A stretch of 64,000 nucleotides of DNA from a phage: sequence record NC_135728.1. One strand, written 5' to 3'. The notes under the pieces are model-generated. The model had not been told where the DNA came from and did not search any database. It saw nothing but the letters and a program-made list of their open reading frames with translations. A program made the position numbers and the translations under genes. Below, in pieces: positions 13,998 to 19,850 of the stretch (its first letter is position 1; each line of letters opens with the position of its first letter).

Positions 13998-14048
13998 TTA
14001 GATATTGTATCATAAAATAGCTGTTTTTACAACACCGATAAAAATAAA

Positions 14049-14066
14049 GGGGGCCGGAGCCCCCCC
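14049..14066 (-). terminator. GC hairpin (gggggccggagccccc) flanked by A/T runs, possible bidirectional terminator/attenuator
   Basis: Perfect 5-6 bp G/C stem between the tape-measure stop and the next gene start. Confidence 0.45.
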
Positions 14067-14074
14067 GCAGTTTA

Positions 14075-16414
14075 TTACCAAAGATCTGTTGACATAAAGT
14101 TAATATCTTTGCTATTCTCCCACTCAAGTTTTGCATCAAGTATTTTGCTAAACTCACCTTCATCTATAGAAATGGTGATTTTACCATCGCTGATCTCCAA
14201 AGGTAACATTTCCATGGTTCTCAGTTGAGAGGCAAAACCAGGGCCACCAGGTAGCGGAAGGGTTCCACCAGGTAAAGTGTCTAGAGGATTAACAAACCCG
14301 TTGCCACCCGATACTATATCTTTGCGGATCATGTCACTAATAGTATCCAGCTGTTGATTTCTCTCACTGAAAGGGTTGAAACGATCATTAACCATAGCCC
14401 CAGCACTCAATAATGTCCCAAGTATCCCCAACTTACCTAACATACCGGTACCTTTGATGCCTGGTGCTTTTATTCCACCACCTTTTCCTGCTGCGCCACC
14501 TACAGAACCCCCTGTGGTGATGGCACCAGCGCCAGCAGCTCCAGCTGCACCTTTCAGGGTGCTAAGGAACTTAAAAGTTTTTACAAGCATGGATGCCATG
14601 ACAAACCCTTTTGTAAGAGCGTGCACTACCAGCATAATGGCAGCAGCATACCCTGCCCATTTGGCAGTGCTGAAGGTGTCATGCAGCTCTTCGGAATACT
14701 CCTTCGTCTTAGCTGTTATGAACCCCCATTTGATGCCCCACTCAAGGAAAAACAGGCGGATCTTAACTATAGTGTTGTTTAGCTCACCAACAACCCAGTT
14801 AAGGCCTCTAATAAATCCGCTAACAAAATCACCTGAGGCATCCCACACAAATTGCAGAGTCTCACCTGTGCGGATCAAGGTGTAGTAGAACTCTGTCAAT
14901 TCATCTGCCCAACGGGTGAACAGTTTCTGACGAGACAGTTCTATGAAGGTTTTCAGTCTGTTTTCTGCCAGTACGTTAGACTTCTGCATTCTTTCATAAC
15001 CAGCTGCAGATGCCTCGTTCATGTACTTAGCCACATACTTCATGATCTTAGCTGTTTTAACCTCACCTTTCTTCATCATATCCATGAACTGATCCATGGA
15101 GAGTTCAGAAAGACCAAAAGCCTCTTTGGTGGCCTTGATAAAAGGTTCGTATGCACCAGGTAATGCTTCAGCAAGTTGTTGCTTCAGTTCTTCGGACATT
15201 ACTTGTCCCTTGCCTAGCATCTGTTGGATTGCCATGATACCACGCTGGTATTTTACCTCATCGGCACCATAAGCAGCAGCATACTGGGAGTATGCAGAGA
15301 ACAGCTCATGAACCTCCTGATTTGTCATCTGGTTTTTGGCGTTTACCGCCATCTGGGCGTAACCTTGAAGACCAGATTTGAGATCAAAACCAAGACGCAT
15401 AGCCTCTTGCTGGACAAACGCAACCTCACTGTTGGCTTTGTTTGGATCTCCAGTAACAGCAGTAAGAGCAGCACTTGCACCCTCCATCATGTGACCGGAT
15501 CTGTTAACAGCAGTAAATCCAGAAAAAGCCGTATACGCAGCTGTTGCATTAATAACAGATCTACGTAAGTCTCTCATGGCATCGCCTAGTGTAAGCGTTT
15601 GGTTGGTGGCGCTTTTAAACCCAGACTGCAGCGCTGACAGGTGGGCGTTAAAGGTTGACTTCTTCATCTCCCCGCGAGCAAACCTGGACTCTAACTCTGA
15701 GTATCCTGGCAAGCTTCCACGGAATCCGGCCCCATACTTGGCAGAAAGTCTTATCGCGGAGTTGTAGAGGTGGGTTCTCCTTGCCTCACGATCCGACATA
15801 AGCTTATTATCCATACCAGCTTTACTGTCTCTTCTTAGCTGTCTATGATAACGATTCATAGCGGCTGTCTGAGCTTTCACAAGGTTAGGGTCGGAAGCCA
15901 CACCACCCATATTAGGGTTACCGGGGATATATTTGAAAGATTTGGCATTAGCCAAAACTCTTGCCTTAGGTGCCTTATAACCACCGTAAGACACTGGTGC
16001 AGATTTGGCAGCCTTTTTGGCCTCTTTAGCTTGCTGCTGGTAGAACTTACGCATCCTAGCCATTTCTGGATTTTTAGCGGTAAGATTACCTACAGCTTGT
16101 TTACGTCTCGCATTCTCCCTACGTTCTATTGCAGCCCTTACTGCAGCCTCTTTCTTGGCCTGTGCTACGCTCTCTCTGTGCAGTTTAGCATTTGCCTGAG
16201 ATTGCTGTCTGGCAACCCTCTGCATTGTCTGCTGGGTTTTAACAGCTACCGCCTGCCATCTACTCATGGGGTTGGCTGAGTTAAAATCCTCGCCCAGTTT
16301 CCTGAACTCCCTCCCAATACTGCGAATTTTCTCTACAGCTTTTTTGTAGGAGGAGTTCTCTATCTCAAAGCCAATCTTGTTGACTGTTGTGGCAACTATT
16401 TTGTTTGTAGCCAT
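14075..16414 (-). CDS. tail tape measure protein (779 aa)
   Basis: Long, Ala/Lys/Gln-rich helical protein with a Gly-rich hydrophobic C-terminal segment; follows tube and chaperone genes. Confidence 0.8.
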   Translation of the reverse strand: MATNKIVATTVNKIGFEIENSSYKKAVEKIRSIGREFRKLGEDFNSANPMSRWQAVAVKTQQTMQRVARQQSQANAKLHRESVAQAKKEAAVRAAIERRENARRKQAVGNLTAKNPEMARMRKFYQQQAKEAKKAAKSAPVSYGGYKAPKARVLANAKSFKYIPGNPNMGGVASDPNLVKAQTAAMNRYHRQLRRDSKAGMDNKLMSDREARRTHLYNSAIRLSAKYGAGFRGSLPGYSELESRFARGEMKKSTFNAHLSALQSGFKSATNQTLTLGDAMRDLRRSVINATAAYTAFSGFTAVNRSGHMMEGASAALTAVTGDPNKANSEVAFVQQEAMRLGFDLKSGLQGYAQMAVNAKNQMTNQEVHELFSAYSQYAAAYGADEVKYQRGIMAIQQMLGKGQVMSEELKQQLAEALPGAYEPFIKATKEAFGLSELSMDQFMDMMKKGEVKTAKIMKYVAKYMNEASAAGYERMQKSNVLAENRLKTFIELSRQKLFTRWADELTEFYYTLIRTGETLQFVWDASGDFVSGFIRGLNWVVGELNNTIVKIRLFFLEWGIKWGFITAKTKEYSEELHDTFSTAKWAGYAAAIMLVVHALTKGFVMASMLVKTFKFLSTLKGAAGAAGAGAITTGGSVGGAAGKGGGIKAPGIKGTGMLGKLGILGTLLSAGAMVNDRFNPFSERNQQLDTISDMIRKDIVSGGNGFVNPLDTLPGGTLPLPGGPGFASQLRTMEMLPLEISDGKITISIDEGEFSKILDAKLEWENSKDINFMSTDLW

Positions 16415-16427
16415 GGTTTCCTCATAA

Positions 16428-16464
16428 TAAAAAGGGCCAGATCCCAGAAAAGGAATCCGGCCCT
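16428..16464 (-). terminator. rho-independent terminator (imperfect GC hairpin plus U-run on minus strand)
   Basis: agggccagatcc...ggaatccggccct hairpin preceded on plus strand by an A-run. Confidence 0.5.
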
Positions 16465-16468
16465 TAGA

Positions 16469-16717
16469 TTATCCTCTCCTGCGCTTAGCTTTCGCAGCAG
16501 CTGCGGCAGCCTTCTGCTCCCGCTCCATTTCCCTGTTTTGGACGGTATCTAGGAATTCTTCGATATCAAGATACTCACAGAGCTTCAGGAAATACGCCAT
16601 ATCTGCAAGATTTAGCGATTCAAAATTTTCCCCTTTGAAATTCTTGAGCACTCTGCACCAAAGAAAGTCGAACCAGTTGAGTGAACTGTTCTTGGCTGCC
16701 CACTCACTGGCCCTCAC
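16469..16717 (-). CDS. tail assembly chaperone, downstream frame (possible -1 frameshift extension of the 16729-17202 product)
   Basis: 82-aa ORF in the -1 frame relative to the upstream chaperone ORF, 12 nt after its stop; classic position between tube and tape-measure genes. Confidence 0.45.
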   Translation of the reverse strand: MRASEWAAKNSSLNWFDFLWCRVLKNFKGENFESLNLADMAYFLKLCEYLDIEEFLDTVQNREMEREQKAAAAAAKAKRRRG

Positions 16718-16728
16718 AACAACCTTGC

Positions 16729-17202
16729 TTATTCCTGCTCTTCCGGAGTCTGATCCAGGTTGTTCACCTGCTGAATCATACCCATCTGCTGTAACATCTC
16801 CAGAAGGCTTCCTAAACCGTCTTGTGTGAAAAAACAGCCGTAGTTAACCTCCAGAACCTTACCTGCCAGCTTAATCATCTCCAGCAGATGCCCTGCAAAC
16901 ACAACATCTGGGTTAAGCTTATCCACACCATCTACGGTAATATCTTCGAACAAGATTTTAAATAACTCTTCAATAGAGCTATCATCAAGTTCTTGGAACA
17001 GGTAAGCCAGGGCAGTAGGAAGGACCTCTGCCATATTCTGACCGCCTGAGATAATAGATCCACCGATAGCACCTAGCGGAACAGCCACAATCTTACCGAT
17101 TTTAGGCATGTTTTTCATTGCTTTCATCGGTCCCCAGTGGGTGATCACAAAGTTGTGCCCTGCTAAATCAATCTCTGTTGTAGGTCTAAAGTTTATAGCC
17201 AT
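16729..17202 (-). CDS. tail assembly chaperone (157 aa)
   Basis: Position between tube and tape-measure genes; acidic C-terminus. Confidence 0.5.
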   Translation of the reverse strand: MAINFRPTTEIDLAGHNFVITHWGPMKAMKNMPKIGKIVAVPLGAIGGSIISGGQNMAEVLPTALAYLFQELDDSSIEELFKILFEDITVDGVDKLNPDVVFAGHLLEMIKLAGKVLEVNYGCFFTQDGLGSLLEMLQQMGMIQQVNNLDQTPEEQE

Positions 17203-17313
17203 TTTATAGCATCCTTATTAGTCATGTTGTGCACCATATTTGTGTATTTTACCATGATTATGGTGCATTGTCAATTTAACCTTTCAAGCAATTCAAGAAC
17301 GTGTGTCAAAACC

Positions 17314-17348
17314 ATAAAAAGCAAAAAGCCCCACCCTAAGGTGAGGCT
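17314..17348 (-). terminator. rho-independent terminator after the tail tube gene
   Basis: gccccaccctaaggtgaggc hairpin followed on the minus strand by TTTTTGCTTTTT. Confidence 0.6.
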
Positions 17349-17365
17349 TATGCTAAAGTGTGCCC

Positions 17366-17839
17366 TTAGATAATACCTGCAAGACCTGCGAGGCCAGTGA
17401 GAGCACCAGTAATGTTATCACGGTTGAGCCATGCATCCAGAATACCGATATCCCAGTCCAGTTGACCTACTTCGGTTCCGTAAGTCAGGTCTGGTTGTTT
17501 CTGGATCCAACCGATTGTGGAAATACCAGGGCCCTGGCTACCTTCCAGCAGAACCGGGAAGAATACCAGGCCAGTAATCGATGCCTGTTTCTGCCAGTCA
17601 GAGAGGTAAGCGTTCCATACTGAAGTGTTCTGCAAAGACACAGTCATGACACCAGATTGGTTACGGGACAGAGCCGCAGACATTTCACCATCCACACCGA
17701 CGTGAGGATAAATGTTGTCTTCGTTTCTTGAAACAACAATCTTGGTGTCAGCAGCGAAGCCAGTGACACGCTGCTGCATCAGATACAGTTTGACCTTTTT
17801 AGGGTCATACGCATAAGGAGTTAAAATTTGAGTTTCCAT
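17366..17839 (-). CDS. tail tube protein (157 aa)
   Basis: Small protein directly downstream of the putative sheath gene; synteny. Confidence 0.55.
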   Translation of the reverse strand: METQILTPYAYDPKKVKLYLMQQRVTGFAADTKIVVSRNEDNIYPHVGVDGEMSAALSRNQSGVMTVSLQNTSVWNAYLSDWQKQASITGLVFFPVLLEGSQGPGISTIGWIQKQPDLTYGTEVGQLDWDIGILDAWLNRDNITGALTGLAGLAGII

Positions 17840-17849
17840 CTAGGCTTCC

Positions 17850-19226
17850 TTATTCAGTCATTGCAACAGCATTGGTGGATTTAGAACCAACTTTGTCCAG
17901 AAGGACGTTGATCCGGATACGAACGAAGTGCAGGGCGTTATTATACACCAGTTCTACTTTCACACCTTCCAGAACACGAGCAGCCAACTGATTGGTTGGG
18001 ATTTCTGCACGTTTAGGAACTGTGATGATCGGGTCGTAGAATACATTATTGTCTTCGTCGAAACCTGTCAGGATCGCACCATTCTTAATGCCAGTGTTGA
18101 TTGGGTTGTTCATCAGGACAGACTTGATAACCGGAAGATCATCATCAGACATCTTCATGCTCAGACCCATATTAGATCGGCGATGCATGTATCCAAACAT
18201 AGACTCTTCGGATCTGAATTTAATCCAGTGGGCGAAGCGGATAGCATCTGCATACTGACCAGAAGCACATTTACCTTCCCAGAAAGCACCAACACCGTTG
18301 ATTGTTCTGTAGAAGTTAATGTTGTTCTCCCAAATCGCCATGCGCTGGGTCAAGGTCAGGGATGGTGCAAGAACACCAGGCATCTGTTTTAAGTGTAAGC
18401 TGTCGCCGTAGGACGGATCGTTGGATGCCATAGCACCGATAATACCGCCCTCTGGGAAGTCTTTGTCGGCGCGAGGGTCGTACATACCAATACTGTCATA
18501 TTTTGCAGCTTTCAGTTTAGTGGCAATGTTGCTGTCTTTGCCAGTCACATCTTCTGCAGTAGAGTAGACATGCAGTTTGTAGTTAGCCTGAGCCCACTTA
18601 GCACATGCTTCAATATCTGTGTGGTCTTCATGGCACAAGAAGTACCAATTATCCTGCTCAGCGTTGATCTTGTCGATCACGGTAGAAGGTTTTTCACTAT
18701 TGGCAATGTTTTTGATCGTATAATTACCAGTATGATAACCAACAGTACAATCACCAGTGATGGTGATAACACCTTCGTCTGCCTGCACGGTGATACCGTC
18801 TAAGCTATCATCAGCCTCAATTTTTTCCTTCATTGCCTCTGCGATCTGAGTTGCCCCTGTTCCACCAGAGATAGGGACTATCAAGGCAGTATTGTAGTCA
18901 CCTTTTGCAATAGTCATTACGACATCGGTATCAGCTGCGGCAGCAATACCTTTAAAATCTACAGTGGTCTTTTCTTTGGCCTGTCTGCCGATCATAACGT
19001 ATTGTGGAGGGAATACACCACCAAAAGCTTTTGCTGCAAACTCATACGCTGCAGAGCCTTGTGCGAAACCATCTTCCACCATCTGATCCAGCTCCGCATA
19101 TACGCGAGCTCGCTCAGTAAAGTTATTGTGGATAGCGATGAACAGGGGAGTTTCGAAACCTACAGTGTCAATAGGCTGGGTTCCGAGGTTAACTGTAACA
19201 TCTACCACTTTATCTAAATATGGCAT
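17850..19226 (-). CDS. tail sheath protein (458 aa), putative
   Basis: Sheath/tube/chaperone/tape-measure gene order typical of contractile tails; size appropriate. Confidence 0.55.
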   Translation of the reverse strand: MPYLDKVVDVTVNLGTQPIDTVGFETPLFIAIHNNFTERARVYAELDQMVEDGFAQGSAAYEFAAKAFGGVFPPQYVMIGRQAKEKTTVDFKGIAAAADTDVVMTIAKGDYNTALIVPISGGTGATQIAEAMKEKIEADDSLDGITVQADEGVITITGDCTVGYHTGNYTIKNIANSEKPSTVIDKINAEQDNWYFLCHEDHTDIEACAKWAQANYKLHVYSTAEDVTGKDSNIATKLKAAKYDSIGMYDPRADKDFPEGGIIGAMASNDPSYGDSLHLKQMPGVLAPSLTLTQRMAIWENNINFYRTINGVGAFWEGKCASGQYADAIRFAHWIKFRSEESMFGYMHRRSNMGLSMKMSDDDLPVIKSVLMNNPINTGIKNGAILTGFDEDNNVFYDPIITVPKRAEIPTNQLAARVLEGVKVELVYNNALHFVRIRINVLLDKVGSKSTNAVAMTE

Positions 19227-19298
19227 TTGTTTCCTCTTAATATCTGTGCACGGATATCAAACACGCAGTGTAATCATTACACTACACAATTATAACGA

Positions 19299-19850
19299 TT
19301 ACTGACCACTGTCTGTAACCGCTTTACCAGAATTGGGTGAAGGGAAGTGTGTGGTTATTTCAGCCTTAATTCCCTGAAGATCCTCAAAAGCCCCAATGTC
19401 TGTTTCAACAAACCTTACGTTAAATGTCAGCATCACAGTGGCTCTATTTTCATACGTCTGCTTATTCAACGGCACTCTTTGAGGTGAGATTGTTGAATTG
19501 TTAGAGTAGGCAAAGCACGATCCCAGAGGGAAATACTTGTCATAAAACATTGGAAGGTTTATTGCTTGCAATACTCTGCTAAGTGCAGCATATGCCCTGC
19601 CACGATAAGCTGTTAATAGATAAGTAACAGTGTAGCTGTGGGTGACGTAAGCATTACCCTCCGCATCTTGAAATTCATTATCTTCCCAAGTGGTGGGATT
19701 GATCGCTAAGGTTTGTAAAAGTACAAACTCACCTTCCGGCTTCGGTATGGTAGAGCTTTCTGCCAGAACTACAGTTCTTCCTGTGGCAACCTTGACGAGC
19801 TTAGCAATGGTTGTTTCAAGATCAGAAAAAACTTTTTCGAAAGCTTCCAT
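19299..19850 (-). CDS. hypothetical neck/tail completion protein (183 aa)
   Basis: ORF track; start-stop overlap with upstream gene. Confidence 0.4.
   Translation of the reverse strand: MEAFEKVFSDLETTIAKLVKVATGRTVVLAESSTIPKPEGEFVLLQTLAINPTTWEDNEFQDAEGNAYVTHSYTVTYLLTAYRGRAYAALSRVLQAINLPMFYDKYFPLGSCFAYSNNSTISPQRVPLNKQTYENRATVMLTFNVRFVETDIGAFEDLQGIKAEITTHFPSPNSGKAVTDSGQ

Follow-up and report, generated by a model that had tools for sequence, protein, structure and literature searches.

Probable programmed −1 ribosomal frameshifting in the tail assembly chaperone gene of rV5-like phages

The sequence analysed here is a 64,000-nt stretch of phage record NC_135728.1 (hereafter the window), in which two short open reading frames lie among tail genes. 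The pair and the flanking tail genes are all encoded on the minus strand, and the region is laid out as follows, TAC standing for tail assembly chaperone:

19226-17850, minus strand: sheath gene (phrog_205)
17839-17366, minus strand: gene for a tube-type structural protein (PF11681, phrog_280), which several records call "tail tube protein"
17349-17326, minus strand: terminator-like hairpin and T-run of the intrinsic type, between the tube and TAC genes; a terminator in the Murica annotation
17274-17246, minus strand: sigma-70-type promoter-like site upstream of the TAC gene (TTGACA-17 nt-TAAAAT with TG; 11 of 12 matches)
17202-16729, minus strand: ORF1, the predicted TAC-N gene, zero frame, 157 aa (ATG at 17202, stop at 16731-16729)
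16717-16469, minus strand: ORF2, 82 aa (GTG at 16717, stop TAA at 16471-16469)
16465-16432, minus strand: terminator-like hairpin of the intrinsic type (14 pairs and a T-run), in the gap that separates the −1 ORF from the tape-measure gene; a terminator in the Murica and rV5 annotations
16414-14075, minus strand: tape measure gene, 779 aa (PF20155, phrog_5255)

An earlier note, made from the letters of this DNA, had placed the pair between the tube and tape-measure genes, and the matches of the two flanking genes to phrog and Pfam families (phrog_280 and PF11681 on one side, PF20155 and phrog_5255 on the other) bear this out. The order sheath, tube, TAC, tape measure, in which the chaperone has its canonical place, is the same in all annotated relatives examined. 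The 5.3 kb around the chaperone pair share 98.7% identity with Escherichia phage vB_EcoM-Pr121LW; for over 110 further Vequintavirus (rV5-like) myophages the figure is 90-96%. Within this stretch, positions 16469-16760, the ORF2 region, form a locally hyper-conserved patch, with 92 of 117 phage records reaching 99% identity or more there, whereas the surrounding 5.3 kb (14000-19300) reach only 90-95% in 113 of 124. Some 18-23 of the matching records (MG0656xx) are named "Campylobacter phage", with Campylobacter jejuni as the host, and are 94-100% identical to E. coli rV5-like phages here; these are probably mislabelled or contaminant assemblies. The chaperone pair is also bracketed by putative regulatory signals, with a hairpin and a near-consensus sigma-70 promoter upstream and a 14-bp hairpin downstream, directly before the tape-measure gene; the promoter-like site at 17274-17246 is annotated as promoter P51 in the rV5 RefSeq record. 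The pair may be a separately dosed transcription unit within the tail operon.

Family matches identify ORF1 as a predicted tail assembly chaperone. It matches Pfam PF21822 (Phage_TAC_15) over residues 15-129 with a score of 83 bits (cut-off 22) and phrog_3840 (tail assembly chaperone) over residues 3-156 with an E-value of 6.5e-69; PF21822 is present in all 73 clusters of database homologues. The product that would arise by continuing in the −1 frame has matches solely in families of unknown function that model the annotated short ORF, phrog_10409 among them (8.9e-51, over its ORF2 part).

The earlier note had proposed a chaperone pair joined by a −1 frameshift, in which the second ORF lies in the −1 frame of the first and begins 12 nt after its stop. 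The geometry is as claimed: the codons of ORF1 start at 0 mod 3 and those of ORF2 at 1 mod 3, a −1 relationship given the minus strand, and the GTG is the 12th base past the last base of the stop, leaving an 11-nt gap. When the −1 frame is extended upstream, as the note had advised for locating an XXXYYYZ site in the overlap, it is not closed by stops before ORF1. The last −1-frame stop is the TAA at 16847-16845, and the frame is open from 16844 for 123 codons in all, 37 of them before the ORF1 stop. The overlap contains T_TTT_TTC, a heptamer of the kind that the note had been unable to pick out with confidence, and the features of this stretch are as follows:

16852-16848, minus strand: GGAGG, a candidate Shine-Dalgarno-like stimulator, 13 nt 5' of the heptamer
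16844-16732, minus strand: dual-coded overlap, with the zero and −1 frames both open up to the ORF1 stop
16834-16828, minus strand: putative slippery heptamer T_TTT_TTC in the codons TGT-TTT-TTC (Cys123-Phe124-Phe125), where two tRNA-Phe are proposed to slip by −1 in tandem
16828-16469, minus strand: −1-frame extension that follows Phe125, 119 codons and the stop TAA 16471-16469, including the annotated ORF2

No other XXXYYYZ in ORF1 is in phase, and T_TTT_TTC lies three codons past the last −1 stop. Stops make up 9.3% of the −1-frame codons in neighbouring genes, and at this local density 123 open −1 codons have a probability of about 6e-6 and 37 open codons one of about 0.03. When the codons of ORF1 were shuffled, 6.8% of the trials had an in-phase heptamer inside an open −1 window. 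From the single sequence alone the heptamer evidence is thus suggestive; it becomes compelling once the comparative data are added. Two other ways of joining the ORFs were considered and rejected: the +1 frame closes 8 codons past the ORF1 stop here, while most relatives have it closed after 4-20 codons and none later than 42, and readthrough of the ORF1 stop codon would end after 4 codons, where the zero frame closes.

The heptamer is identical and in phase in 13 IMG/VR loci (39-99% identity), in each of which the −1 frame runs uninterrupted into an 86-92-codon extension. T_TTT_TTC in phase with an open −1 junction is also found in phAPEC8, in the phi92-like phages Eryne and FKP3, and in Aeromonas phage phiA009 (28-35% identity). 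A wider metagenome scan was seeded with the peptide motif x-Phe-Phe, which means that the presence of Phe-Phe is ascertained while the choice of codons is not; it gave T_TTT_TTY in phase in 54 of 54 distinct genes (26-99% identity), and in none is the −1 frame interrupted between the heptamer and the ORF1 stop. The codon before Phe-Phe in these genes specifies Cys (TGT, 18), Pro (CCT, 13) or Ser (TCT, 11; AGT, 12) and always ends in T. Phe124 is TTT in all 54, and Phe125 is TTC in 53 and TTT in one. Elsewhere in the same genes TTT accounts for 41% of Phe codons and T for 33% of the wobble bases of Cys, Ser and Pro codons; the chance of a T wobble together with TTT is about 0.14 per lineage, and the genes fall into 9 clusters below 45% identity or 14 below 60%. 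Third positions of nearby conserved codons do vary, Lys115 being AAG in 7 and AAA in 7, Val119 using four codons, and Tyr121 being TAC in 11 and TAT in 4. The heptamer nucleotides, including three synonymous or wobble positions, are invariant in the relatives examined down to 26% identity, which appears to go beyond what coding needs. This amounts to a natural control, in that different residues occupy the X position over an unchanging nucleotide, and the exchange of the heptamer in one lineage adds to it.

One lineage has swapped its heptamer. Rheinheimera phage Barba5A is without the T-run; three codons downstream it has G_GGA_AAG in phase, its −1 frame is open and its C domain is homologous. 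A distant relative, IMGVR_UViG_3300009509_000030 (L073), carries T_TTT_TTC and, 15 codons downstream, an in-phase G_GGA_AAG within an open −1 window; it may be an intermediate in a slip-site replacement of the Barba5A type.

A run of T residues might also act on RNA polymerase, which by adding one U in the U6 run would produce a subset of mRNAs with the whole fusion in one frame. As the site is a homopolymer and the fusion protein would be identical after insertion of a single base, protein data cannot discriminate between slippage of the polymerase and slippage of the ribosome. A 2022 paper by Vladimirov et al., in the reference list of PMC12846349, reportedly concerns T4-like TACs. For bacterial RNA polymerase to slip efficiently, however, a stretch of some 8-9 A or T or longer is generally required. 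Given that the run here is only 6 (7 in one relative), that it stands in the exact X_XXY_YYZ phase in 54 of 54 genes, when phase matters to ribosomes and not to polymerase, and that the G_GGA_AAG of Barba5A is no long homopolymer, we regard transcriptional slippage as very improbable.

The −1 ORF itself bears the marks of a translated sequence. Past the ORF1 stop, substitutions per codon pair are 0.283, 0.226 and 0.585 at −1-frame codon positions 1, 2 and 3, respectively. Since variation falls mainly on the third position of the −1 frame, this frame is in all likelihood translated, and we conclude from the comparison that the −1 ORF past the ORF1 stop is under purifying selection at the protein level. 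Inside the overlap, substitutions follow the zero-frame pattern. On the 3' side of the heptamer, the last 32 residues of TAC-N, a conserved segment, are encoded in the zero frame and a linker rich in Gly, Ser, Asp and Pro in the −1 frame, and the pattern would fit a conserved C-terminal helix of TAC-N overprinted by an unconstrained Gly/Ser-rich linker.

Selection on the −1 frame leads to the question of where its translation starts. ORF2 could be an independent gene, expressed as an 82-aa protein from GTG 16717 through a weak Shine-Dalgarno sequence or by termination-reinitiation, with the open −1 frame and the T-run being incidental. Every public record examined has two separate CDS, the Murica annotation marks a 3-nt ribosome-binding site, phrog_10409 models the 82-aa form, and a weak AAGG lies five bases upstream of GTG 16717, itself only 11 nt past the ORF1 stop; both the GTG and the AAGG are kept in close relatives (L004-L006). 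However, the alignment of −1 products shows that this GTG is not conserved outside the genus. Many relatives (L008, L013, L017, L018-L022 and others) lack any ATG, GTG or TTG from the ORF1 stop up to the conserved core of the −1 product, A-x-x-Y-A-x-K-N-S-S-L-x-W-F-D-Y-L, and in relatives without a start ahead of the core the annotated "ORF2" is a stump of 43-72 aa that begins inside the domain. Given, in addition, that the −1 frame is uninterrupted in all 54 genes when stops take up nearly a tenth of the codons in the −1 frames of neighbours, and that an independent ORF2 leaves the wobble invariance of the heptamer unexplained, we consider separate initiation highly unlikely as the sole route to the C domain. 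Some extra initiation at GTG 16717 in this genus, beside frameshifting, is possible.

T-runs are also error-prone in sequencing, and two abutting ORFs might be an artefact or a pseudogene, a single ancestral gene having been broken by an indel or by a sequencing error in the homopolymer. Against this, the two-frame layout is identical in 117-124 near-identical Vequintavirus records and in all independently sequenced diverged relatives, and the C-terminal 32 residues of ORF1 in the zero frame are conserved as protein. Furthermore, none of the 73 protein clusters homologous to the predicted fusion contains an in-frame fused homologue, all being 149-159 aa long. Since the one-frame fusion is missing from 73 of 73 clusters, we believe that the two-frame split is maintained and is not a sequencing error, and we give the artefact next to no credence.

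Elements that might stimulate a slip were sought around the heptamer. Single-sequence folds of 14 homologues gave no common downstream hairpin, RNAalifold on 10 Vequintavirinae sequences gave a consensus of −0.21 kcal/mol with 4 pairs, none of them covarying, the fold of the window RNA downstream of the heptamer had a z of −0.52, and a search of Rfam gave no meaningful family match. As no conserved downstream stem-loop or pseudoknot was found, slip efficiency may be low. Lambda G/GT likewise does without a simple structure, and a stimulator is thus not strictly a defining feature of such frameshifts. Upstream, GGAGG, GGAG or GAGG occurs at the position of the candidate Shine-Dalgarno-like element in 8 of 13 divergent sequences, but it coincides with conserved Leu-Glu-Val codons, so that its conservation is inseparable from coding. 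Shine-Dalgarno-like stimulation operates in dnaX, with which a spacing of 13 nt is compatible, and it is possible that the GGAGG 13 nt upstream stimulates −1 slippage. Pyrimidine-only X_XXZ_ZZN motifs and "shifty" UUY codons are frameshift-prone in E. coli (PMC4066793). On the 3' side, CGGTTT (window 16814-16819), 8 nt from the heptamer, is invariant in 10 diverged Vequintavirinae-type sequences, and zero-frame Gly129 (GGT in 14 of 14) and Phe130 (TTC in 11 of 11) are without synonymous variation. The invariance of CGGTTT could reflect dual coding, with Arg-Phe in the −1 frame, or a sequence-specific stimulator that has gone unrecognised.

Taken together, the TAC family match, the in-phase heptamer, its conservation and the selection on the −1 ORF support the proposal of the earlier note. 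We believe that one tail-assembly-chaperone gene is very probably decoded in two ways by programmed −1 ribosomal frameshifting; the slip, its efficiency and the protein partners are what we infer. In our model, most ribosomes that start at ATG 17202 would remain in the zero frame as far as the stop at 16729 and produce the 157-aa TAC-N. A minority, with UUU (Phe124) in the P site and UUC (Phe125) in the A site, would slip one base back onto U_UUU_UU, where both tRNA-Phe could re-pair. The slipped ribosomes would read His-Thr-Arg-Arg-Phe-Arg... in the −1 frame, pass the ORF1 stop and continue through ORF2 to the TAA at 16469. The predicted product, TAC-NC, is 244 aa long, running ...EVNYGCFF and then HTRRFRKPSG..., and ends in ...KAKRRRG. 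It would consist of the N domain (1-125), a disordered linker rich in Gly, Ser and Asp, and a helical C domain with a basic tail. If lambda gpG/gpGT is taken as the guide, the N domain common to both forms would coat the tape measure protein (779 aa), the C (T) domain of the rare form would recruit tube protein and so start tube polymerisation, and both TAC-N and TAC-NC would leave before the tail is completed, neither being part of the virion.

An AlphaFold model of the fusion has three parts. The N domain has a pLDDT of about 80-94, the linker (128-162) is disordered with a pLDDT below 50, and the C part is helical with low confidence; the model of the C domain is weak, since its alignment could draw on TAC-N homologues only. 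Among the best viral fold matches of the fusion model are predicted proteins that bear the name tail assembly chaperone or tape measure chaperone (E down to 2e-06), the second best match being a 212-aa "tape measure chaperone" of phage Moogle that is annotated as frameshifted (E 2.3e-06, 224 columns). Among solved structures, sequence searches with ORF1, the −1 product and the family profile gave no significant match, and a fold search of the PDB matched no solved TAC structure, its best result being the weak match 5IR0 (E 0.3). 5IR0 is "ORF19", a protein of unknown function from a PICI-like element (PLE) of Vibrio cholerae, a satellite of the related myophage ICP1. Its resemblance to the TAC-N domain has a Foldseek probability of 0.93, a TM score of 0.58-0.61 and an E-value of 0.3, phmmer gives an E of 0.94, and the family profile fails to recover it. 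That a phage satellite carries a TAC-like protein is a weak lead.

The dual-coded overlap of 32 codons is unusually long and GTG 16717 is specific to the genus, and from these two features a more elaborate scheme can be drawn. Vequintavirus would then make three products, namely a TAC-N with a conserved C-terminal helix of its own, TAC-NC and a free 82-aa C domain. Tube initiation would be tuned beyond the ratio of two isoforms, and the bracketing promoter and terminators would set the dosage of the pair independently of the tube and tape-measure genes. We regard this scheme as speculative and unlikely to hold as a whole.

Existing annotation treats the pair as two genes, and none of the 11 distinct public records examined contains a joined CDS. 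In the rV5 RefSeq record (NC_011041, L024), ORF50 occupies 701-1069 (369 nt), equivalent to window positions 16469-16837, and overlaps the TAC gene by 109 nt; it starts at a CTG codon just before the T-run, and no join is annotated. Evidently, the rV5 annotators saw the long open −1 frame and chose a non-canonical start over a join. The paper on rV5 genomics and proteomics mentions neither a frameshift nor a chaperone, the Murica paper does not mention frameshifting, and no mention of it was found in the other rV5/Vequintavirus literature searched. More than 100 Vequintavirus genomes, and the Stephanstirmvirinae, Plateaulakevirus and Barbavirus genomes examined, annotate what we take to be the C-terminal portion of TAC-NC as a "hypothetical protein" of its own, in some cases as a truncated stump. 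Frameshifted tail chaperones are textbook material, and the present case is an annotation correction, ordinary in kind and of low surprise. Biocontrol and therapy directed at E. coli make wide use of rV5-like phages, so that a correct set of virion-assembly genes is useful.

In related phages a frameshift of this kind has been annotated or proposed before. A frameshifted "tape measure chaperone" was annotated in the FelixO1-like phage Moogle (2015; PMC4319497), and a GTTTTT frameshift motif was proposed bioinformatically for Vandenendeviridae and Andersonviridae (Adele 2025; PMC12846349). As in these sister clades, the pair described here belongs to a related virion module, has its motif near the 3' end of TAC-N and is followed by a "hypothetical protein" that would be the C part of TAC-NC; in contrast to the present work, those reports omit Vequintavirinae and Stephanstirmvirinae. 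The site is now seen in Vequintavirus, in other Vequintavirinae-type relatives, in Stephanstirmvirinae (phAPEC8 and phi92-like phages), in Plateaulakevirus and in many uncultured relatives, and the arguments from wobble bases and start codons, together with the heptamer replacement in Barbavirus, go beyond the sister-clade reports. The proposed T-run frameshift of the TAC gene is thereby extended across a large, old supergroup of myophages, while the understanding of frameshifting and of tail assembly is unchanged.

Phage P2 offers a parallel among myophages, its gpE and gpE+E' being TACs made by a −1 slip on the T-rich heptamer T_TTT_TTG. The locus described here shares with P2 the contractile tail, the order sheath, tube, chaperone and tape measure, and a −1 slip, putative in our case, on a T-run. 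It differs in protein family and phage lineage, and in having T_TTT_TTC in place of T_TTT_TTG.

The paradigm for such pairs is lambda G/GT (Levin et al. 1993; Xu et al. 2004, 2013, 2014, as summarised in PMC5009743). As with lambda gpG/gpGT, the pair lies immediately upstream of the tape-measure gene, the short product would come from standard decoding and the long one from a −1 slip on an XXXYYYZ heptamer, and no strong downstream structure seems to be needed; indeed, Barba5A carries lambda's own heptamer. Unlike lambda gpG, to which it has no detectable sequence similarity, the chaperone here belongs to PF21822, is encoded by a contractile-tailed myophage and would be decoded at T_TTT_TTC. 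Furthermore, the slip would come 32 codons ahead of the stop and leave a dual-coded overlap of 100 nt, whereas the overlap in lambda is a few codons. On account of this 32-codon overlap, TAC-N, unlike its lambda counterpart, would have a conserved C-terminal segment that is absent from TAC-NC.
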